NCBI RefSeq assembly: GCF_032191835.1
Contig: NC_083237.1
Span: 17,112,001 to 17,176,000, forward strand
DNA length: 64,000 nt
Source: Heteronotia binoei
Taxonomy: Eukaryota
Direction: 5' to 3'
Positions 5,470-56,200 of this stretch are shown piece by piece. Position numbers and translations under genes: made by a program. The notes below the pieces were generated by a model. That model searched no databases, was not told where the DNA came from, and saw only the letters and a list, made by a program, of their open reading frames with translations. Every line of letters starts with the position of its first letter. Position 1 is the first letter of the stretch.

Positions 5470-9980
<4,511 letters not shown>

Positions 9981-10049: not shown

Positions 10050-12286
10050 ATGAACCTCAAACTAAGGCCGACCAAGCTAAATTTTGTGTACAGGGTTTTG
10101 TTGTGTTTTCAAGTGTGATTTCTCTCGGTTATGGGTTTCCTTTCATTTGTAAATGAATTTTTGATAGTATCTATTACTGTTAAATTCTATGCAATTGTTG
10201 CATTATTATCGCTTTCAGAATTCAGTGAACTGAAGTGCAGGACATAAATATTTGAACTAAATACAATGGGACAGAGCCCCAATCAATATTTTCAGAGGGT
10301 TTTTTTTCAAAATACCGAAAAACTTTCTCAGGAAGCAATCTTCAACTTTTCCAGACACAGGACTCACTGAGCATAGGATCCACACCTGCAAGCATGGGAT
10401 CCACACCTGACATCAGAGTCAAGTGGCAGGAAGAGGAGGAGCCAGATTTGTGATGTTGTCATTCTCATGGCCCAGGCCATGGGCAGCCAACCAAAGGTGC
10501 TGGGTTCAGGAACCTCAAACCAAACACCAGAAGGAGTACAATAGTGTACAAGCCAAGGATCAGAGTCTGAAAGGAACTTTCTCCACCACAGAGTGACTTC
10601 ACCTCCCCCTCCTGCCTATGGATTAGAGAAGATTTATATTAATGGAGAATAGCCTTGATAACAACATCTCTCAACGGACTTGCCTAATGTATTTTGATAT
10701 ATTATGCATAAGCAGGGCTTTTTTTGAGCAGGAACACACAGGAACGCAGTTCCAGCTGGCTTGGCATCAGGGTGTGTGGCCTAATATTCAAATGAGTTCC
10801 TGCTGAGCTTTTTCTACAACAAAGTCACATGTCATTTTCAGTATTTTAAAAAAGTTTGTAGGGAAATGTATGCTGAACCTTCCCTTTGGCTACCACTTTG
10901 ATCCCCAAAGTCCTGCTCTCCACAATGGTCTGAAAAACCCTTTAGCTTCCAGCTAGTAGAAAAGTGGTTAGAGAAGTGTCTAAAGGGCTGGAGCACTTTC
11001 CCTATGAAGAAAGGTTGAAACGCTTGGGACTCTTTAGCTTGGAGAAACGTCGACTGCGGGGTGACATGATAGAGGTTTACAAGATAATGCATGGGATGGA
11101 GAAAGTAGAGAAAGAAGTACTTTTCTCCCTTGCCCCCCCAGTCGGAATGAAGAGGCAGACACAATTGTTGGGATTTAAACCGGGCCGCTTTATTAGAATT
11201 AACAAACATAACTGGCAGGGAAGGGAAAACCAGACCAGACAAGCCCTGGGGTCAACACCTGGACCCCGCCTTGTCCAAAGGGCGAGCCACCCTGCCCCCA
11301 GCACAAACCCGCCGTAATCGGGTTGTACTGAGCGGCCAGGCCCGCAGCCATCACCAACCGGGCTGGCATCAATCCCCATGGAAAGATCCAACCAGGTGAG
11401 GCTCTCTGTGATCTGCATCACCGTACTGAGCCATTTAGCCCATCTACGGTTCCTGCATACCACCGCACCAACGGTGCTAGGCCATAGGTGCTCCCCTGGA
11501 AAACCCAATGGCCAAACCTAATCCAGCCTGCGACCGAACTAATACTCAACAAAACCTAACCTACTAGGCAGTACAAGGTAGGCGAAAAACACCCCCACAT
11601 AGGCCAATTGTGTGGGAGTGAAAAAATTCCTACCTGGCCCCAAAAGGCGACCGGCATGTACCTGTACTGCCAATGGGAAGGGCGGGCGGGCAGAGAGCCG
11701 AAACAAAACTGCGCAATAAGGCGGGAGCCGGGCTTATATAGCCCCAACTCCGCGCCTTGCAAAACACCCGTATGTCGGGTGATATTGGTGCCCCTCCCTC
11801 CTTCCGGGGGTGCAAAGACGGCCCCCAGCCTATAGCTTGCCAGCTGGCTCGGCTGGGAAGGGGCCGGACCTTGCCCCCCCAGTCGGAATGAAGAGGCAGA
11901 CACAATTGTTGGGATTTAAACCGGGCCGCTTTATTAGAATTAACAAACATAACTGGCAGGGAAGGGAAAACCAGACCAGACAAGCCCTGGGGTCAACACC
12001 TGGACCCCGCCTTGTCCAAAGGGCGAGCCACCCTGCCCCCAGCACAAACCCGCCGTAATCGGGTTGTACTGAGCGGCCAGGCCCGCAGCCATCACCAACC
12101 GGGCTGGCATCAATCCCCATGGAAAGATCCAACCAGGTGAGGCTCTCTGTGATCTGCATCACCGTACTGAGCCGTTTAGCCCATCTACGGTTCCTGCATA
12201 CCACCGCACCAACGGTGCTAGGCCATAGGTGCTCCCCTGGAAAACCCAATGGCCAAACCTAATCCAGCCACCGCCAATGCCAAGCC

Positions 12287-12616
12287 TCTGCTTAGGCATT
12301 AGCGCCCCAACGGGTGGCCCAGAGCCAACCGCACCCCCTGCCAAACTTCCTCTACAAAGGCCCGGTTACCCAAATCCAATAATTAAACACCATCCGGCCG
12401 GTACAGGTCGACTTAAATGACCCGAATGGCCGGATGAGGGGGAAAAACCTAATCCCTCCTCCAAGACCCTGGAAGGGCCCAATTGGCCTTACGTCTGCCC
12501 TTGCACTGAGACCGGGCTGGGTGCCCCAGGAGCCGTCCGGCGAAATGGGCAGCCCCAACGGACCATGCTGCGCCCGCGGATGAGAACCCGCCTTCTCTCA
12601 CCCCGAGCCACAGCAC
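12287..12616 (-). pseudogene. Decayed SGNH hydrolase of Ngaro element 1
   Basis: VLIRGRSMVRW, GTQPGLSARADV and DLYRPDGV* relics align to the element 2 SGNH ORF; frameshifts, stops and a large internal deletion. Confidence 0.75.
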
Positions 12617-12796
12617 CTGAAAAACAAACCACAATCAGCAACGTGCACAAAATTGGTAAACATTAGGCCGACCCCCTAACCCTCCACGGAGGACTGCCTA
12701 CCTTGGATCTTTTATCCCCGACAACCTGTTCACCTCAGAGCAAAACCATCCCAGAAATAACTAGCATCAGCCCAGCACGGGTATGTGGCCAACAAC

Positions 12797-14326
12797 CTAC
12801 TGGGAGCCGGCCGGCGGATGGGGCTGTGGCCCTTTTCCAGGTGGCTGCGAACTGCCGCCTCCGCCTCCGGGGCGCTTACCGCCCGCTCCGGGCTTTGCTC
12901 TACTGCAGGCCGACAGTGCGTGGGGCCCACTGCACAGCGGGCACTCGTGACGAAATTTACAGGGCTCCTTGGGGCAGACCCCCTTGGAAGCGAACTCCCA
13001 GCACAACAACCGGGAATGATCCGGCTGGCCCGCGGAGACGCGGGCACCTGGGGTAGTCTGTTGTTGCTGTGCTCCCTGCACCAAATGACCGCTGTCGGAC
13101 CTATCCCCGGAGTTTGGTTTTGCCGGGGCCATCAGCTGCAACCACAGCTGTTGATTTATTTGGTCCCACGGCATTCCGGGATTGACAGCGGCCCGCATCC
13201 GGAAGGCTTCGTCGTATTGCAGCCATGCTGCCCCGGCGAAGTCCGTATAAGCCCTATAAACTATGTCTATATATTGAAAGAGGGCGGCCGCCCTGGCCGG
13301 CTGTGCCCTTGCGATGACCCCGGCATAGATCAGAAAGCCGGGCAACCAATTCGCCCAGGCCCTGTCAACCTTCCTGCGCTTTATCTTTTCCTTGTCCCTG
13401 TCGTCGAGCTCCTCCTTACTTTTTTTTTCGAGCTCCCTGAACAGGAGACCGAAAACATCGACGTACTCCCCACGGAGGATTCTCTCCCGTGTGGCCGCCG
13501 TCAGATGATCCCCCAACGGCAAAGAAGTGTCGCCGTAGGGGAGAGCGTGGAAGGGGATACTCGCATAGGGGTTCGGGGGGTAGAACCACCCACCCACTTG
13601 AGTTGAAGGCCATGCACCCCGCAACTGGGCCCCCTGCTGACCACCACCTGGCCAAATGCCCGGTGTGGGCAGCGAAGGAGGGGCTGCAGGGGGCGCCCCA
13701 GCGCCTACCAGCTGACCAACAGGGGCAGGAACTGCACTGGACAGCAAACTGGGTGTATGAAAACCCAAAGCCCACGGCTGAGCGGGGCCCAACTGTTCGC
13801 TGGCACCTGACCACCCGGGCCCCCATCCCACCCCGCCCACCCCCAGCAAATGGGGGGTTGGCTGGGCTGGACCCCAAGGCCAACCTTGAATGGGCAAAGT
13901 CATGGGCTTACCACCATCACCCGGAAAGACGCCCGAGCCTCCAGGGGGCCGCGGGCCACCGCTTCCAGATGCCCCTTCGCCCGATGGCACGCCCGAAGGA
14001 CCTTCCCCTGGATCTTCCACCTGGTCAGTTTCCGGCAGCGCTTCCGGCTCCGACTGCCCGCCCTGTAAAGCAGACAACCTTGCCAACAATTCAGTTTCAA
14101 AGGTCAGCCGGGCCGACCGGCTGGTGGCACGGCGACGGCCCTCCCAAATGGGTGAACCTCTGGCCACACGTTCCTGCTCGAGGGCGTCCAATTGGCTAAT
14201 AATAGCGAGGCGAACCCGCTCACTCTGGCCCTGATCTTCAGTTGGGGCTCCTTGCTGGCCCCGCCCCCGGGGTGGGCGAGCAGGCTGCTTGCCCTTAGAC
14301 TTACCCTGTCCCTTCTTAGGTGCCAT
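12797..14326 (-). CDS. Ngaro Gag-like ORF1, 509 aa, open
   Basis: Basic N-terminus; conserved LPLGDHL...ILRGEYVDVF...W..GFLIY...YDEAFR block shared with element 2; C-terminal CCCH plus CCHC zinc fingers (CWEFASKGVCPKEPCKFRHECPLCSGPHALSAC). Confidence 0.85.
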   Translation of the reverse strand: MAPKKGQGKSKGKQPARPPRGRGQQGAPTEDQGQSERVRLAIISQLDALEQERVARGSPIWEGRRRATSRSARLTFETELLARLSALQGGQSEPEALPETDQVEDPGEGPSGVPSGEGASGSGGPRPPGGSGVFPGDGGKPMTLPIQGWPWGPAQPTPHLLGVGGVGWGPGWSGASEQLGPAQPWALGFHTPSLLSSAVPAPVGQLVGAGAPPAAPPSLPTPGIWPGGGQQGAQLRGAWPSTQVGGWFYPPNPYASIPFHALPYGDTSLPLGDHLTAATRERILRGEYVDVFGLLFRELEKKSKEELDDRDKEKIKRRKVDRAWANWLPGFLIYAGVIARAQPARAAALFQYIDIVYRAYTDFAGAAWLQYDEAFRMRAAVNPGMPWDQINQQLWLQLMAPAKPNSGDRSDSGHLVQGAQQQQTTPGARVSAGQPDHSRLLCWEFASKGVCPKEPCKFRHECPLCSGPHALSACSRAKPGAGGKRPGGGGGSSQPPGKGPQPHPPAGSQ

Positions 14327-15203
14327 CCTCTAATGGTACCAATGCCCCTAACGGAGACTTACCGGCCACCCAAGGCCCCTTTTCAGCCCCCACCTCCTCC
14401 CAGAATAGGAAGAGCAGCAAACACCCCTGTTAATGGGGTGGCCCACACCACAGCTCCAGACACAGAAAGACACCACCCCAGAAACTACCAGCCCCACAAG
14501 TAGGGAATGGATGAAGAGAGGGGGAAGGTTGCCAAAGGCACCAGCCCAGGCACCCGGCCCTCAAGCAAAAGAAACCAGGGGGGGGGGGCTGGGGAGGACA
14601 GGATGCTCGCCGCGCCACTCAATCCAAGGAAAACAGTGGCCTAATCCCCTCCAAATTATGATGAGAGCGGGCTAGGCTGGGCTATCCAGGTCAGGGCCAG
14701 GGGAGGAAAAAACGCCGCACTGTGGTGGCCTGAGACCCCCAGGAGAAGGCTGCTGCCTAATAATGGCCAGTCGCCTGCGCACGCTTGGACCAGGGGCCAC
14801 TTCGCGCAGCCCTGATTCGGGCTAAGCAATGGGAATAAAATGCCCTTGGGCTGGGAAGCCTTAAGCAGGGAGCGCCGCGCCGACCCGATCCGTCCCGGCC
14901 ACCCCCGAGCCTCCCCCCCACTGGGCCTTGGCCCCCACGCCTGACTCAGCCTCTGAAGCGCCTCGCCGCGCGAAGCCCCGCCGCGCCGAACAGCTGTTTC
15001 TCCGAGGCCGCTGCTACGCCGGCGCGTGTTTCGGCCTTCGCAAGCGCCTCGCAGCGCGAAGCCAACGCCGCGCTGAACAGCTGATCCCCGGAAGGCAAGT
15101 TGCTAGGACGACCCTCGTTGCTCAGGCCTAACCCTGAGCTCGGACCAACGTGGCTCTCTCCAGAGAGCCGAAACAAAACTGCGCAATAAGGCGGGAGCCG
15201 GGC

Positions 15204-15210
15204 TTATATA
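15204..15210 (-). promoter_or_regulatory. TATA box in Ngaro repeat A1 (copy in A2)
   Basis: TATATAA on the minus strand about 45 nt before the 3' end of A. Confidence 0.55.
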
Positions 15211-15789
15211 GCCCCAACTCCGCGCCTTGCAAAACACCCGTATGTCGGGTGATATTGGTGCCCCTCCCTCCTTCCGGGGGTGCAAAGACGGCCCCCAGCC
15301 TATAGCTTGCCAGCTGGCTCGGCTGGGAAGGGGCCGGACCTTTCTCACAATACAAGAACTCGTGGGCATTCGATGAAATTGCTGAGCAGACAGGTTAAAA
15401 CGGATAAAAGGAAGTACTTCTTCACCCAAAGGGTGATTAACATGTGGAATTCACTGCCACAGGAGGTGGTGGCGGCCACAAGTATAGCCACCTTCAAGAG
15501 GGGTTTAGATAAAAATATGGAGCACAGGTCCATCAGTGGCTATTAGCCACAGTGTATGTGTGTATATAAAATTTTTTGCCACTGTGTGACACAGAGTGTT
15601 GGACTTGATGGGCCATTGGCCTGATCCAACACGGCTTCTCTTATGTTCTTATGTTCTTAAAGAGGGAAAGGGCTTTTCACTTCCTATCCATATGCACAGG
15701 CTTTTGAAGAGTTACTCTAGTTTAAACACACTGATGGGTCTTGGTAATAAGTCAGAGCTGACTTATGGCAATTCCATAGGGATTTCAAG

Positions 15790-19684: not shown

Positions 19685-21100
19685 ATGGCTCCCAAGAAGG
19701 GCCAGGGCACTTCCAAAGGGAAGCAACCCGCTAAGAAACGTACCCAGCGGCCTGCTTCCCCCGTGGACCTGGGTGAGGAGGCCCAGTTGAGGCAAGCCAT
19801 TATTGGGCAGTTGGAAACCCACGAGCAGCAGAGGGGAGCGGCCGGGGCCCCTACTTGGGAGGGACGACACCGGGCGTCGGCACGTTCCTCTAAAATGACA
19901 TTTGAGAAGGAAGTTCTTGCTCGCCTTTCTGCCTTACAGGGTGCATCGGCGGATAAGCAGCAGGGGTCAGACCAAGAGGATGAGGCTGATTTGGAGGCAG
20001 CAGGCAGTGGAGAACAGCCTACGCCGGGACCTGAAGGGGAAATTCCACATCCAGATCCGGCTGTGGTGGTATCCCCTCCTGTGGTTCCGGGTAAATCACA
20101 GACACTGCCCCAGTTGCTGTGCTGGCCGTGGGGTCCGGTGCAGCCGGCCCCCTCCCCACAAGGCTGGGGGGGCTCGGTGACGGCGGCGGCGGGACAGCCT
20201 GGGCCTATGGGGTACCTCTTGGGCCTGGGGCCCACCCTGTGCGGCGCCTCAATACCAGGGGGCGATTGGGCCTGTTTCTCACCCCCCCGGGCAGGGGACA
20301 GCCACACCCTCAACACAAGGCAGTCCTGCGTCTGTGACGACAGCGAGCATACTGCCCTGGGGGAGTCAGCAGCAGACGCCTCAGCTGGGAGGGTGGCCTG
20401 GGTGCCAGTGGGGGACATGGCATTATCCCCCCAATCTGTACGGGTCTATTCCCTTCTATGCCTTGCCATATGGGGATACCACCCTACCGCTAGGCGATCA
20501 TTTAACGGCAGCGACTAGGGATAAAATATTGAGGGGTGAATACATGGACGTGTTCAGTCTTCTCTTCAGGGAGCTCGAGAAAAAGGACAAAGATGAGCTC
20601 GATGATAAGGAGAAAGAGAAGCTGAAGCGCCGTAAGGTGGATAGGACCTGGGCCAACTGGTTGCCGGGTTTCCTGATTTACGTGGGTGTTATTGCCAGGG
20701 CACAGCCTACACGGGCTGCAGCGTTGTTTCAATATTGTGACATCGTGCGTATACAGATTTCGTAGGTGCAGCGTGGTTACAATATGACCAGGCCTTCCGG
20801 ATGCGTGCTGCTGTCAATCCAGGGCTTCCATGGGATCAGATCAACCAGCAGCTCTGGCTCCAGTTGATGTCCCCTGCGAAGCCCAATACGGGGGACAGGG
20901 CTGATAGCGGGCACTTAGTACAGAGACAGCAGAGCAGGGCAGGGGCCCGCAGTGTCGCGGGCCAGTCGGTTCAACCCCGGCTGCTTTGCTGGGAATTTAC
21001 GTCCAAGGGCGTCTGTTCCAGGAATTCCTGCAGATTCAGACACGAATGTCCATTGTGTGGCGGGTCTCACGCCTTCTCAGCCTGCAGTAAATCGAAGGGA
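19685..21100 (+). pseudogene. Element 2 gag (frameshifted)
   Basis: MAPKKGQG...; frames switch near 20340-20400 and 20750; zinc fingers CWEFTSKGVCSRNSCRFRHECPLCGGSHAFSAC. Confidence 0.85.
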
Positions 21101-22705
21101 GCCAGCAGCCACCTGGAAAAGGGGCCCAGCCCCATTCATCTGAGGGTACTTAGGCGGCTGCTGGCCGGTTACCCCCTGACAGTCGATAAGGAATATTTAC
21201 TGGCGGGTTTTACTTATGGATTCAGGATTCCTTACCAGGGACCTGGGGTCCCTGGTTCGGCTCCTAATTTGCCCTCTGTAAAGGGGATGAAAAAGATGGT
21301 AAGGGATAAGATAGCGAAAGAATGTAGGGAAGGCAGGGTTATTGGCCCATTTGATGCCCCCCCCCCTTGTCCACATTATGGATATCCCCCTTAGGAGTTG
21401 TGCTAAGAAGGCGCCGGGGGAATACCGTTTGATACATCATCTATCTTACGCCAAGGGAGGATCGGTGAATGACACCATCCCTGAAGTTTTTTGCTCCGTC
21501 AGGTACACCTCCTTTGATCAAGAGATCAAGGTGGTGCGCGCTTGCGGCGTAGGGGCCGAAATGGCAAAATGCGACATTAAGTCTGCATTTCGTCTTCTGC
21601 CAGTTCACCCAAAGGATTTTGATTTGTTGGGTTTTGCATTTGAAGGAAAATATTATATGGACAGGGCCTGCCCATGGGTTGTTCTGTGTCCTGTGTGGCT
21701 TTTGAAAGATTTAGTTCTTTTATGGAATGGGCAGTCAGGGCCAGGTCAGGGTTGAATGACACCATTCACTACCTGGATGACATCTTTTCGTGGGCCCCGC
21801 TGGGTCCGGTCAATGTGCCAGATTACTGCATGCATTTGAGGATCTCGCGCAAGAACTTGGTGTGCCATTGGCACACGAGAAGACAGAGGGCCCCAAGGCA
21901 GTCCTTACGTTTTTAGGCATCGAATTGGGCACCGTGCAGCAAACTTCTAGGCTGCCAGCTGACAAGGTTGAGGGCCTTAGGGCCAGGTTGGCCACCCTTA
22001 AACAGCAACGCAAGATGTCGCTTTTGGAGCTGCAGCAGTTGGTGGGGCATCTCAACTTTGCATGCAAAGTGGTTGCCCCGGGCAGGGCATTCCTGCGGCG
22101 TCTATGCAACGCAATGTTGGCCTTGAAGTCCCCCCACCACAGATTACGGGTGAATGCTGGCATGCGGGGAGACCTGGAAGTGTGGGAGGAATTTTTGAAT
22201 TCCTTCAATGGAACTTCGTTCTGGCGGGATGATTTGAAGATAGAGGCGGAACTCCAGATCTCCTCCGACGCTTCCGGGGCTACTGGTTTTGGAGTATACT
22301 TCAGGGGGCACTGGTGCGCGGAGCAGTGGCCTGATGCGTGGTCGGACAGCGGGTTATGTCGTGACCTAACCTTCTTGGAGTTTTTTCCCATCTTGGTAGC
22401 CGTTTGGCTCTGGGGTGATCAGTTGTCCAACCATACAGTGCACTTCTGGTGTGATAACATGGCGGTTGTACATGTTATCAACTCCTTGTCTTCAAAATCA
22501 GTCGTGGTGATGAACTTGGTCCGAGCTTTTACTTTACGTTGCTGTGGTTGAATATATTGTTTCTCGCCCGGCACGTCCCAGGAGTTTGTAATGGGGTGGC
22601 GGACGCACTATCTCGTCAACAGATGGAGCGTTTTTGCCTACTTGCTCTGGAGGCGGACCAACGACCAGCACGAATGCCACCAGAGCTTTGGCACCTTGAG
22701 AGGTG
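21100..22705 (+). pseudogene. Element 2 reverse transcriptase / RNase H (frameshifted)
   Basis: YRLIHHLS, KCDIKSAFRLLP, PMGCSVSC, HYLDD; RNase H SDAS...LEFFPI...WCDNMAVV. Confidence 0.9.
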
Positions 22706-23775
22706 AAAGCCGGTAGGGCAATTCAACTGGCTCTAACGCCTAGCACCAGAAAAGCCTATGGGAGGGCAGAATTACAATTTCGGCGCTTCAGGACAGACGT
22801 GGGGCTCTTAGACAGCTGGCCGGTCCCGGTTAGTCAGTCAGTCAGTCAGTCACTTTTTATTTGTATCCCGCCCTCCCCGCCAAAGCGGCTCAGGGCGGCT
22901 AACAACAAGAACTTAATGCATACATTGTACAATAATAACAATAAATAACATTTTAACTACAATTGATTAAAATCTATTAAAATTCTAAAAAGACATGATT
23001 ACCCACATGATTCAGTTTTGTGTGCATCAAAAGGAGAAGGGGTTAAGCCTGAAATCCATTAAGGGGCAATTGGCAGCATTAGCATTCCTTAGTAAAGCCC
23101 AGGGTTTCCCCGATTTTACCAGCGATTTCAGGATTAGGAAGATGTTGGAGGGCTGGTTAAGGGAACGGGGGCCCAGGGTCGACCCGCGGCAGCCAATTTC
23201 TCCTTTAGTGCTTCAGGGGCTTCACAGGGTATGGCCGGAGGTCTGTTCCTCTTCGTTTGAGGCCTCCCTGTTCCATGCGGCCTCCTTGGTCGCCTTTTTC
23301 GGGGCATTATGGATCAGCGAGCTAGTGGTGCAGTCAAAGGGAGACCAGTCCGGCCGGGCCCTAGGGTTTGCTGATGTGAAGTTTGCAGGAGCACAGGTCA
23401 AACTGACTGTGTGCCGGTCAAAAACCGATCAATATTAGAGGGGGACAGTACTCGTTATTGGCCAATGCGTTACAGCGGAGCTATGCCCAGTCAGAGCTTT
23501 AGAGCAATATATTGCCCATAGGGGAGAGGGCGAGGGACCCTTTTTTAGGCATGCCAATGGCCCTCCCCTCACGAAGTACCAATTTTGGGCAATAACTGGG
23601 AGAGCCCTGGCCCAGCTGGGTTTGGGTGGGGTCAAGTTCGGGACCCATTCATTCCGTATAGGGGCCGCATTTACAGCGGCAGCTATGGGATATGCCCCCC
23701 CTCCCCGCTATTCAGCAGATGGGCCAGTGGCGTTCCGCTGCTTATAGGTCTTATGTCCGCCCATTGGTCGGTTAA
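22703..23775 (+). pseudogene. Element 2 tyrosine recombinase (disrupted)
   Basis: GALWISELV (catalytic R mutated to W), RSKTDQ, CPVRAL, THSFRIGAA, GQWRSAAYRSY. TAG at 23436, frameshift near 23700, retroposon insert at about 22829-22997. Confidence 0.88.
22829..22997 (-). mobile_element. Short SINE/LINE 3' fragment with (TCAG)n inserted in the recombinase
   Basis: Interrupts WPVPV|THMIQF; similar sequence near 38630-38700. Confidence 0.65.
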
Positions 23776-23848
23776 GTTTTCGTATGGTTAGCAAATGTTG
23801 CGCGTTGGCATGTTGTTTTCGGTGTCTGACTTCTTTTCTGTTTTTCAG

Positions 23849-24453
23849 GTGCTGTGGCTCGTAGTGGGAGGCATCGCATCCTCATCTGCGGGCACAGCAT
23901 GGTGTTTTGGGCGGCCCACCATGCAAGGAGATCCCCGATTGGTACTCAGCTGGGTCTCAGCAAGTGGGCGACAGTGGAGTGGCTTGGGCGCCGTGGCCTG
24001 CGTTGGCCAGGCATTATGCCGCTTCTTTTCCAGGAAAGGAAGGCGCCCCCCCCCCCAGATATCCTGGTCATTCACCTGGGTGGGAATGACCTGGGCTTTA
24101 TGAAGGGCAAGGCCCTGTCCCTGCAAGCACAGGAGGACATGGAAGCCATCAAGTGGAGGTGGCTGGGGGTCCTTTTGATTTGGTCGGCAATTTTGCCGCT
24201 CAGGGTCTGGCGGCCCGCCCTACATCCTGGGGCAATCGAGTGGGCCAGATGCAAGGCCAACCGGGCCTTGCAAAAGGCCATGGAAGGGGGCATGGGCATA
24301 TTCCTCCCCAATCCGGCTATACGGGTCGGGAATCCGGACCTGTACAGACCGGATGGAGTTCATTTATCTGAATTCAGAAACCGGGCCTTTTTGGACAAGC
24401 TTAAGAGGGGGTTGCAGGCAGCTCTGGGCTGCCCGGTGGGCGCAAATGCCTAA
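23849..24453 (+). CDS. SGNH/GDSL-like hydrolase of Ngaro element 2 (open reading frame, no ATG before the catalytic Ser; probable spliced exon)
   Basis: Blocks ILICGHS, WLGRRG, HLGGND, DGVH. In-frame TGA at 23827-23829 upstream; CTGAC branch point, pyrimidine tract and CAG acceptor at 23826-23848. Confidence 0.8.
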
Positions 24454-25158
24454 GCAGAAGCTTGGAATTGGCGGTGGCAGGATGAGGTATTGGCTACAGC
24501 ATTTGTTTGGGGAGCACCTATGGCTCGGCACCATAGGTGCCCGTGGTCTGTACGAACTGCAGATGGGCTCCATGGCTCAGTGCGGGGAGTGCAGATCACG
24601 ACAAAACCTCACAGCGGTGGATTCTTCCATTGGGTTGGATATAGGCCTACGTGGAGGTGGCGTTTGAGCCTGGCTGCTCAGCACCAGCCGGATGATATTC
24701 GGCTTGGGCTGGGGGCAGGGTGGCTCGCCCTCCTAGGACAAGGCGGGGTCCAGGGTTTGACCCCAGGGCTTATCCTGTTAGGCTTTTGACCTCTTGCCAT
24801 CCCTGCTCATTCAAGCTGTGTTTAATAAAGCAGCCCTTTTTCATCCAACTTTGTGTCTGCCTCTTTTTCCGATTGGGGGGGCAAATAGTATGGATATACG
24901 TTTTATCACAGGAACTAGCTGGGGTTAGTTAGCAGAACATGCTAGGAAATGGGTTAGTTCCTGAAGAAATGGCTACTAAATTTTTCTTCCTTTTTAGAAT
25001 ATAGAAGGTTGAGACTTTTGCTAAGCAGTTGGTGTCACAATTGTATAATAGATGTGGCATATTTTTGTTATACTGTCTTTTTAAATGTTTAAAACCTTTT
25101 AAAGTCCACTATTTTCTTTTCAACCCTACAAAAAGTTGTAAATATCAAGTGGTGATGA

Positions 25159-25362
<204 letters not shown>

Positions 25363-53000: not shown

Positions 53001-53275
53001 TCCGACTCTGAGGTGACGTCACATCAGACTTTTTGTGGGGTGATTTTGCCATTGTCTTCCCCAGTCATCTATATTTTACCCCCAGGAAGCTGGGTACTCA
53101 TTTTACCGACCTCAGAAGGATGGAAGGCTGAGTCAACCTTGAGCCGGCTACCTGAGCCCAGCTTCCGCCAGGATCGAACTCATGTTGTGAGCAGAGCTTG
53201 GACTGCAGTACAGCAGCTTACCACTCTGCACCATGAGGCTCCTCTTGAAATACATAGCAATGAATTTTTCATCCA

Positions 53276-56200
53276 ATGGTCATAGAAAGAGAGGTGACTG
53301 ACCTGGAGAAGCAGAGACGGTCAGCAAGGCACTCGCAGAAGACTCTCGGGGACGTGTTAGTTGAGCCCCGCTCTGAACATGGCAGCCCCGTTGCTGCCAG
53401 GGAGCGTGAGGGTCGAGAGGGAACAGGGCACCGGGCTGAGGATAAGGGAAATGCGCCCTCAGAAGGGACCTCTTCTTCGGTTGGTGAGCGGGAATCCTTT
53501 CACACCAAGGAACCATCCCTGGGCGGGGAGAGAGGGAGGGTCTTGGTAGTTGGTGATTCGATCCTTAGGCAAGTAGACAGCTTGGTGGCAAAACCACATA
53601 CTGACCGTATGGTGACTTGCCTGCCTGGTGCGACGGTAGTGGGCATTACGCGTGTAGTAGATAGGCTGATAGACAGTGCTGGGGAGGAGCCTGTGGTCGT
53701 GGTGCATGTTAGCACCAATGATGTGGGGAAATGCAGTCGTGAGGTCCTGGAGGAAAAATTTAGGCTGCTAGGTGGGAGACTTAAGGCCAGGACCTCCAAG
53801 GTAGCCTTCTCGGAAGTGCTACCTGTTCCACGTGCAGCGCTGGAGAGACAGGCACAAATTAGAAGTCGCAATGTGTGGGTGAGACGATGGTGCAAGGAGG
53901 AAGGGTTTAAGTTTGTTAGGCACTGGGATGTTTTCTGGAACAAGTGGGAGCTGTACAAAAAAGAGGGTCTCCACTTGTCCCTGGATGGAAGCAGGCTGCT
54001 GGTACTTAAAATCAAAAAGGTGGCAGAGCAGTTTTTAAACTAAATCTAGGGGGAAAGCCGACAGGAGATGAAATGTCTCTGGTTCTGGAAGACTCATCTC
54101 AAAGAGATAAACGGTTAGCTCTTACTTTTCTACCGGGTAATGGAACAGAGTTGTCCACTGAGATGATGACAAACAGAATGGACTGCCTGCCAGAGTCTCA
54201 AGGCGGCAGGAGGAAGGTGGCGGGCCTAGCTTGCCAAAAAATTATAGATGTTTGTACACAAATGCTAGAAGTCTTCAAAGTAAAATTGGTGAGTTGGAAT
54301 GTTTAGTGTTGAGAGAAAACATAGACATTGTGGGAATTTCAGAAACTTGATGGAATGAGGAGAATCAGTGGGACACGGTGATTCCTGGATATAAGTTATA
54401 CCAGAAGGATAGGGAGGGAAGGGTTGGAGGTGGGGTGGCTCTGTATGTCAGAGAGGGCATACGGTCCAGTAAGACTGAGTTCAGAGAATTGGACTCTCTT
54501 ATTAAAATGCTTTGGGTTGAAATAGAGGGCCCAAAAGGCAATTTAACTATGGGAGTTTGTTATCGCCCACCAAATCAAAAGACAGAGGACGACTATAATA
54601 TGATGGAAGGCTTAAAGATGGTGGCTAGATGAAAAAACTTTTAACTATCTGCAGATTGATTGGGTCAATATGTGTTCTGGTCGAGAGAAAGAGACTGAGT
54701 TTCTAGATGCTCTCAATGACTGTGCTATGGAGCAGATGGTCACAGAACCTACCAGGGGTGGGGCAATCCTGGATTTGGTCCTTAGTAATGCCCAAGACCT
54801 GGTGAGAGAAGTGAAAGTGATCACACCACTTGGGAGCAGTGACCATAACGTTATTGATTTCACTATTTGTATAAATAGGGAGTTGCCTCAAAAGACCAGC
54901 ACAACCACGTTTAACTTTAAAAGGGGTAAATTATCTGACATTAGGAGGCATATGAAGAGGAAACTGAAAGGAAAGGTAAATACAGTCAAAAACCTTGGGG
55001 AAGCTTGGAGGCTATTTAAAACTACAATCCTAGAAGCTCAGATAAAATATATACCACAAGTTAGGAAAGGTACAAACAGGTATAAGAGAAGGCCTGCATG
55101 GTTAACAAGCAAAGAAATGGAAGCTGTAAAAGGTAAGAAGGACTCCTTTAAGCGGTGGAAAGCTAGTCCAAATGAAATTAATAAAAGGGAACACAGGCAA
55201 TGGCAAATCAAATGCAAGACTGTGATCAGGCAGGCAGAAAGGGACTATGAGGAGCATATTGCAAAAAACATAAAGACCAACAATAAAAATTTCTTCAAAT
55301 GTATTAGTAGCAGGAAACCAGCCAGGGAGGCAGTGGGGCCCTTGGATAACTGAGCGGTCAAAGGATTACTGAAGGAGGATAGGGAAATGGCTGAGAAGCT
55401 AAATGAATTTTTTGCCTCCATCTTCACTGTGGAAGATGAGAAGTGTTTGCCCGCCCCAGCACCACTTCTATTGGAAGGGGTGTTGAAAGACCTGAGCCAG
55501 ATTGAGGTGACCAAGAGGAGGTCCTACAACTGATAGACAAATTAAAAACTAATAAGTCACCAGGTCCGGATGGCATACATCCGAGAGTTCTGAAAGAACT
55601 CAAAGTTGAACTTGTGGATCTTCTGACAAAAATACGTAATCTTTCACTGAAATCTGCCTCCGTTCCTGAGGACTGGAAGGTAGCAAATGTCACCCTCATC
55701 TTTAAAAAGGGTTCCAGAGGAGATGCGGGTAACTACAGGCCAGTCAGTCTGACTTCAATACCGGGAAAGTTGGTAGAAACCATTATCAAGGACAGAATGA
55801 GTAGGCACATTGATGAACACGACTTATTGAGGAAGACTCAGCATGGGTTCTGTAAGGAAGATCTTGCCTCACTAACCTGTTACATTACTTTGAGGGGGTG
55901 AACAAACATGTGGACAAAGGAGACCCGATAGATATTGTTTACCTTGACTTCCAGAAAGCTTTTGATAAAGTTCCTCATCAAAGGCTCCTTAGTAAGCTCG
56001 AGAGTCATAGAGTAAAAGGATAGGTCCTCTTGTAGATCAAAAACCGGCTAATTAATAGGAAGCAGAGAGTGAGTATAAATGGGCAGTCTTCACAGTGGAG
56101 GATGGTAAGCAGTGGAGTGCCGCAGGGCTCAGTACTGGGTCCCATGCTCTTTAACTTGTTCATAAATAATTTGGAGTTGAGAGTGAGCAGTGAAATGGCC

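Follow-up and report, generated by a model that had tools for sequence, protein, structure and literature searches.

How does a retrotransposon express an enzyme whose reading frame offers no start codon ahead of the catalytic serine? This question is raised by a stretch of 64,000 nucleotides (nt) from the gecko Heteronotia binoei (contig NC_083237.1, positions 17,112,001 to 17,176,000, forward strand; hereafter the window), which contains two remnants of Ngaro retrotransposons, element 1 and element 2, each with a gag frame followed by the frame of an SGNH esterase. In Xenopus, the Ngaro elements DIRS-53_XT/54_XT have an SGNH open reading frame (ORF) after the tyrosine recombinase (YR), described in one study as 'with no proven function' (PMC9210276), and the function of the Ngaro hydrolase is termed unknown in another (PMC6681497). 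A first-pass annotation of the window had proposed that gag is spliced to the esterase frame in an env-like subgenomic message, which would encode a fusion of the N-terminal part of Gag (Gag-N) with SGNH. Genomic copies that lack exactly the predicted intron make it very likely that this Ngaro family uses a splice donor within gag together with an acceptor immediately ahead of the esterase. In the reading that we favour, to which we give a probability of about 0.87, the resulting subgenomic message is predicted to encode a Gag-N/SGNH protein of about 336 amino acids (aa), which would likely join Gag assemblies and tie them to membranes.

Element 2 carries the signals for a Gag-N/SGNH message

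In element 2 (plus strand), the parts of the predicted message and the end of the remnant are the following (a slash marks a splice boundary):

19685..20090, plus: Gag-N coding exon, from the ATG at 19685, 135 codons + 1 nt (406 coding nt), with a basic N-terminus, two predicted helices and an acidic/Pro linker
20091..20096, plus: gag splice donor G/GTAAAT, phase 1, codon 136
20091..23848, plus: intron of the predicted message, spanning Gag-C, reverse transcriptase (RT)/RNase H and YR, all broken in element 2; the homologous intron is exactly missing from the genomic copies L072, L108 and L112
23826..23848, plus: branch-like CTGAC (containing the in-frame TGA 23827-29), pyrimidine tract and acceptor CAG, by sequence check
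23849..24453, plus: SGNH esterase exon, beginning at the CAG/GT boundary, with motifs GHS, LGRRG, GGND and DGVH and no ATG ahead of the catalytic Ser
24476..24884, plus: B repeat, the 3' end of the remnant, by repeat comparison

The first Met of the SGNH exon comes after GHS, and the two exon lengths add up to 336 aa. The acceptor lies in a 23-mer that is identical in element 1, with identity over exactly 10 nt upstream and 13 nt downstream. On these points, as on its coordinates, its phases and the in-frame TGA, the first-pass annotation was borne out by a check of the sequence. Element 2 itself is decayed: after a frameshift its gag meets the first stop at codon 278, neither pol nor YR is intact, and of the repeats a single B is kept, with no A1, A2 or B2 detected. 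Element 1 has no RT or YR and its SGNH frame is deleted and frameshifted, with A1, an open gag and B1-A2-B2 kept. Probably, neither element is a current source of active product, and the splice is a property of the whole family.

Genomic copies lack exactly the predicted intron

Three separate genomic copies (L072, L108 and L112) join the gag donor exactly to the SGNH acceptor, at the very ends predicted from the window. In one of them, L077/L108, the element is complete, with the repeats A1...B1-A2-B2, and three siblings match it at 98.6-99.5% identity; these and two more siblings carry a 1323-1329-nt GTAAG...CAG intron that is missing to the base in L108, where the fusion frame is open over 336 aa. 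L086/L112 belongs to a different subfamily; its join keeps the register of L108 and its frame is also open. L071/L072 shows the exact join and has decayed since. Which donor is used had been left in some doubt by the first-pass annotation, as element 1 has other strong donors in the leader and at gag codon 8; L108 resolves this, since both are intact there and the copy is cut only at codon 139. A leader intron ending at a CAG 5 nt before the gag ATG of L064 was also considered and is not supported, L108 having kept its leader. A further copy, L079 (G000:C6:95974113), keeps pol and joins a second donor at the start of YR exactly to the SGNH acceptor. The matching site in element 2 is:

22713..22718, plus: second donor CCG/GTAGGG in the YR N-terminus

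Intron-loss copies would form if the spliced RNA, in which both element ends are kept, were reverse-transcribed and integrated by enzymes acting in trans. The RT of DIRS-1 is reported to act in trans (PMC7192593), in keeping with the use of such a spliced RNA, with its two ends retained, as a template.

The splice signals are conserved across the family

A search of the genome with the SGNH exon gave 11,269 candidates, 150 of which were scored; 40 longer loci were taken (20 for their long open frames and 20 of a set with 204 SGNH codons) and 20 more were added later. The named homologues closest to the exon come from geckos. In the young intact subfamily, Gag, Pol, YR and SGNH span 509, 638, 336 and 204 codons, stop to stop. 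The ORFs of L064 match RVT_1 above cut-off and Phage_integrase below it (E 3.7e-4), and no match to the methyltransferase family was found in the ORFs scanned. The family thus has the ORFs of a Ngaro element, namely gag, RT/RNase H, a tyrosine recombinase and SGNH (PF13472) after YR, and the split direct repeats A1...B1-A2-B2 of such elements are found in element 1, L064 and L108.

On the acceptor side, CAG precedes the SGNH exon in 29/30 loci, element 2 included, and in 40/40 of a second set (a few loci are common to both); the acceptor together with 22 exon letters is matched exactly by 793 genomic copies. In the 204-codon set, all 20 copies have a TGA 7 codons upstream of the exon and no ATG before GHS. 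On the donor side, gag could be located in 54 of 59 copies and the donor reads G/GTAAG in 53 of these, element 2 (GTAAAT) being the only one to differ. The first-pass annotation had suggested comparing the donor with synonymous sites: the third base of Gly139 is T in 29/29 representatives (less than 90% alike), and among the 39 further four-fold sites just one is equally invariant, with values of 0.37 to 0.81 at the remainder; similarly, Lys140 is AAG in 97%, vs 58-83% at four other AA- codons. This pattern of splice signals is far beyond chance.

A second, divergent Ngaro family of the same genome has a phase-1 acceptor before SGNH in at least 8 loci. Its intron-loss search gave one match, L150 (G000:C5:87229416), in which an unrelated high-copy repeat is followed by the SGNH exon, precisely from the acceptor on; it is not counted as a Gag join. 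The long open frames upstream of SGNH in 20 loci were also rejected as Gag-N joins, most of them reflecting lost stops or small deletions.

Several non-autonomous subfamilies have been independently deleted (L109-L111, L114-L116 and L119; also L067, L070, L117, L120, L125 and element 1 of the window); they have lost RT and YR and retain gag with both splice sites and, in most cases, an SGNH frame that is open. Between L064 and L109, the SGNH frames differ by 0.03 at non-synonymous (dN) and 0.32 at synonymous (dS) sites. The retention of both gag and SGNH suggests that both products act in cis.

Gene models of other species show the same layout

RefSeq models of about 320-420 aa in which Gag-N is followed by SGNH occur in Eublepharis, two Anolis species, Elgaria, Hemicordylus, Rhineura and Pogona, so that the proposed layout recurs in lizards; in frog models, SGNH stands behind longer basic N-termini. 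With the profile, 605 representatives reach an E of 1e-30 or lower. Where one locus has several isoforms, these have a common exit point and differ by cassettes of 17, 34 or 50 aa, and in a gecko TRIM42 model Gag-N ends at the residue of the donor. XP_054830619.1, XP_062972037.1 and XP_053154958.1 are among the RefSeq models considered.

Parts of Ngaro Gag-N or SGNH are carried by host models for TRIM42, a keratin, V2R, DUSP12 and VGLL4 (P0054, P0001, P0003, P0088 and P0164), and Ngaro splice sites therefore appear to make host chimeras readily. A 394-aa Gag-N-like/SGNH protein (P0156) is encoded without an intron on a 1677-nt Logan contig. Large teleost proteins with cold-shock-like and ZNF318-like parts (P0018, P0019, P0187 and others) end in an SGNH domain of this type with an intact DGVH, and a snake ZNF318-like model likewise ends in such a domain, which is placed elsewhere in the tree; these proteins could reflect additional captures by host genes, or the host gene from which Ngaro obtained its domain.

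The same gag donor may serve the recombinase and Pol

Two further sites of element 2 are candidate acceptors:

22620..22622, plus: candidate YR-frame acceptor CAG/ATGG, phase 1; the CAG is conserved in copies, and RefSeq isoforms enter YR at the homologous residue
21086..21087, plus: weak candidate Pol-frame acceptor, phase 1

The YR frame has no fixed ATG, and a phase-1 CAG precedes it in all 28 copies (of 59) in which the pattern located the site; since the site is dual-coding, its conservation is not independent evidence of splicing. The 50-aa cassette of Elgaria, as well as models of Hemicordylus, Rhineura and Xenopus, align to the YR N-terminus from about the acceptor residue, and two Hemicordylus models consist of Gag-N plus YR. 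On the strength of these gene models, the gag donor probably also reaches the acceptor before YR, which would yield a Gag-N/YR protein. For Pol, a phase-1 YAG is found in 48/50 located copies, a conservation that says little because the Cys-Ser codons are constrained anyway.

The predicted fusion protein has a well-preserved esterase domain

The SGNH exon is open in 53/59 copies, all of them found by SGNH similarity, which favours openness, and a dN/dS of 0.127 over 209 pairs of 21 representatives points to purifying selection. In the 53 open exons, the key residues of blocks I, II, III and V are kept almost throughout (Ser in 51, Gly in 52, Asn in 53, Asp in 52 and His in 51). In a structural model of the fusion, the SGNH domain is confident (predicted local distance difference test, pLDDT, 76-96) and the linker is disordered. 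The best solved relative by sequence is the esterase of ZfL2-1 (4C1B, E 1.7e-07), and Foldseek returned PAF-AH/TesA-type SGNH hydrolase folds (E about 1e-7 to 1e-5). A complex prediction with three copies of Gag-N (residues 25-95), made without use of the alignment, scored 0.02 vs a mark of 0.32.

How could such a protein act? By analogy with the ORF1 protein (ORF1p) of ZfL2-1, the two Gag-N helices would oligomerise with full-length Gag, and the esterase would bind acidic lipids and hydrolyse esters. Whether Gag-N thereby targets the esterase to particles or membranes is, on this analogy, an even bet.

Alternative explanations

Several observations weigh against the favoured reading. Strength alone would not single out the gag donor, which ranks 3rd of 303 GT sites in L064, 6th of 249 in element 2 and 7th of 147 in L109 by a weight matrix. 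The two Gag-N helices (29-55 and 71-89) are modelled with low confidence (pLDDT about 50-68), and the RefSeq models are predictions, with introns inferred from protein isoform pairs only. Intron-loss copies at the YR acceptor, or from the gag donor into any non-G exon start (Pol included), gave no match, both searches being without a positive control. When a single RNA run (share 0.05) was compared with an intact natural copy, neither of the two splice sites appeared among the 15 joints listed out of 25; this run is uninformative, with 196/348 records less than 90% alike, and looks like a different organism. Finally, 9 of the 20 copies picked for long open frames have a Met upstream of SGNH, and a GGT is common to donor and acceptor, which means that deletion by microhomology might, in principle, give a junction of the same appearance.

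The shared GGT speaks for an account in which the joined copies are DNA-level or template-switch deletions and the splice-like signals by-products of other constraints, and internal deletions are frequent in the family (element 1, L067, L070, L109-type and L117-type). GGT sites, however, number 120 in L064, where 51 pass the probe filter, and 22 pass it in L109. Two of the probe searches for joined copies favoured donor-like left sides; with a probe whose left side was nearly free, both of the two non-acceptor copies were joined at the gag donor (vs 793 intact acceptors), an outcome with a chance of about 1-2 in 1000 under GGT microhomology by our own arithmetic. A control site some 30 nt inside the SGNH exon gave no match, and the 13 matches of one probe search were 3 joins, 8 unspliced acceptor variants (7 judged by matched letters alone) and 2 unrelated. 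Moreover, those other deletions that were examined have their breakpoints elsewhere and leave the acceptor in place, and gene models use both sites with host exons. An origin by deletion is thus highly improbable. The least probable account dispenses with splicing: unspliced RNA would be translated into the esterase through a frameshift, through readthrough or by reinitiation downstream of YR. YR elements typically have overlapping frames (PMC9210276), and some older copies do have long open frames upstream of SGNH. The first-pass annotation had named an ATG of SGNH's own before GxS as one finding that would speak against splicing, and the picture is split on this point: no such ATG exists in the 204-codon set, whereas the upstream Met of the nine long-frame copies is there. 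Yet in the copies with 204 SGNH codons, YR has ended by the point where the SGNH frame opens, behind the TGA found in all 20 of them, and subfamilies without YR keep both the acceptor and an open, selected SGNH frame.

A more serious contender accepts the splice and limits Gag-N to the supply of a start codon, the esterase being a free enzyme without Gag co-assembly. It would suit an esterase that has no ATG of its own, a disordered linker, the use of a second donor near the YR start in L079, and frog models whose N-terminal part has no visible likeness to lizard Gag-N. But a start would also be given by earlier, stronger-scoring donors (gag codon 8 and the leader), which are unused in L108, and the donor lies just after both helices in lizard families that are only 29-52% identical, with the two [RK]hxxhE helix motifs, which we read as coiled-coil motifs, kept in 27/29 models. 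We therefore regard a free enzyme as unlikely, and retain the Gag-associated fusion as the favoured reading.

Relation to known systems

In retroviruses, env and accessory genes are expressed from one genomic RNA, in which a major 5' donor is joined to downstream acceptors that give later genes their own mRNA. The Ngaro family resembles this in its spliced subgenomic RNA, seen here through exact intron-loss copies and not as RNA. It differs in that the donor is at gag codon 136-139, so that the products carry a Gag-N tag, in that the product is an esterase and not a fusogen or envelope glycoprotein, and in that the spliced RNA can also serve as a template for new genomic copies. The term 'env-like' of the first-pass annotation therefore holds for subgenomic splicing and is otherwise loose, since the donor is internal to gag and is likely used for the recombinase as well.

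The Xenopus Ngaro elements (PMC9210276) share the A1...B1-A2-B2 split repeats, the gag, RT/RH and YR ORFs and the position of SGNH after YR; SGNH is treated there as a fourth ORF, whereas in the gecko family it is an ATG-less exon spliced from gag. Neither 'splic' nor 'intron' occurs in PMC9210276. For the ORF1p of ZfL2-1, hydrolysis, coiled-coil dimerisation and liposome binding have been shown (PMC3905857). This protein (PDB 4C1B) and that of CR1 share with the predicted fusion a basic N-terminus, a helical region (modelled with low confidence in the fusion) and an SGNH domain with a Ser-Asp-His triad; they come from a single unspliced ORF of a non-LTR (long terminal repeat) element, in contrast to the YR retrotransposon of the gecko. 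Activity, dimerisation and liposome binding were measured there and would extend to the Ngaro fusion only by analogy. Two unrelated retrotransposon classes thus appear to converge on a basic end, helices and an SGNH esterase, which strengthens the idea that lipids or membranes matter for retrotransposition.

While the Ngaro element is of a known kind, its spliced Gag-N/esterase expression appears undescribed: a literature search whose coverage stopped short of Goodwin & Poulter 2004, Poulter & Butler 2015, Repbase and supplements gave no description of Ngaro splicing or of the TSG101-SGNH protein treated below. With a concrete product and an exact junction, the role of the Ngaro hydrolase and the translation of the hydrolase and of the overlapping recombinase ORF become directly testable.

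A related SGNH exon in squamate TSG101

A single diverged SGNH exon of the gecko genome, 88% identical to a Sphaerodactylus model, lies within TSG101:

G000:C21:152569810-152570391, minus: SGNH exon (L128), open, phase 1, tandem acceptor TAG-CAG; located downstream of TSG101 exon 7 and ahead of the canonical exon that follows

Corresponding RefSeq isoforms of TSG101, 407-410 aa long and made of UEV plus SGNH, are found in geckos, lacertids, Varanus, Elgaria, Pogona, Sceloporus, Rhineura, Python and Candoia, with pairs that differ by one Ala. Across squamates their ungapped identity is mostly 81-92%, and the catalytic His is Leu in 32/33 sequences, duplicates included. The SGNH exon would replace the C-terminal part of canonical TSG101, which holds the coiled coil and the ESCRT-I (endosomal sorting complex required for transport I) assembly box. 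In a tree whose root is unsure, and which omits 5 Logan/ENA rows that lack the anchor motif, the seven TSG101-SGNH rows form one clade (100/98), which groups with fish host proteins and frog Ngaro and not with gecko Ngaro (94/82, unstarred). From these sequences, the TSG101 esterase exon is likely an old capture. A processed TSG101 pseudogene of the canonical isoform also exists in the gecko genome (L149, G000:C21:191992016-191992677).

A comparable case is Lyosin, an exon derived from L1 ORF1 in reptile MYL4 (PMC12129022): there too a retroelement domain is kept as an alternative host exon in reptiles, with a different element, domain and gene. TSG101, Ngaro, SGNH and esterase have no occurrence in PMC12129022. 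The TSG101 exon links the esterase module to ESCRT, which is reported to assist LINE retrotransposition (PMC5478143).

Tentatively, and at less than even odds, vertebrate Ngaro elements might work like complex retroviruses: one gag donor would be joined to several phase-1 acceptors, and the esterase, the recombinase and perhaps Pol would each carry Gag-N as an oligomerisation tag and be brought by it into a particle associated with membranes. Squamates would in addition have co-opted a catalytically disabled esterase as an alternative last exon of TSG101, giving a UEV-SGNH protein without the ESCRT-I assembly helices, a possible dominant-negative trap for late-domain proteins.

Other features of the window

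Element 1 (minus strand) comprises:

15161..15342, minus: A1 repeat, by repeat comparison
12797..14326, minus: gag ORF, open, 509 aa, from the ORF list
13906..13911, minus: gag donor G/GTAAGC, phase 1, codon 139, by sequence check
12617..12640, minus: branch-like CTGAT, pyrimidine tract and acceptor CAG, by sequence check
12290..12616, minus: SGNH remnant with an internal deletion and frameshifts (about 270 nt lost)
11128..12269, minus: B1-A2-B2 split direct repeats, by repeat comparison

A duplicated segment of the window holds paralogous exons at 7427-7656 and 25107-25335, which we take from their motif to be sulfotransferase-like. Element 2 sits just upstream of the second of these, in the same orientation, and given this neighbour its acceptor could trap host transcripts. 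A CR1-type ORF1 esterase lies at 53264-54043 on the plus strand (PF13472, E 1.1e-08) and served as the outgroup of the SGNH tree. Between 26460 and 60476, a tandem cluster on both strands consists of genes that are olfactory-receptor-like by their motifs.

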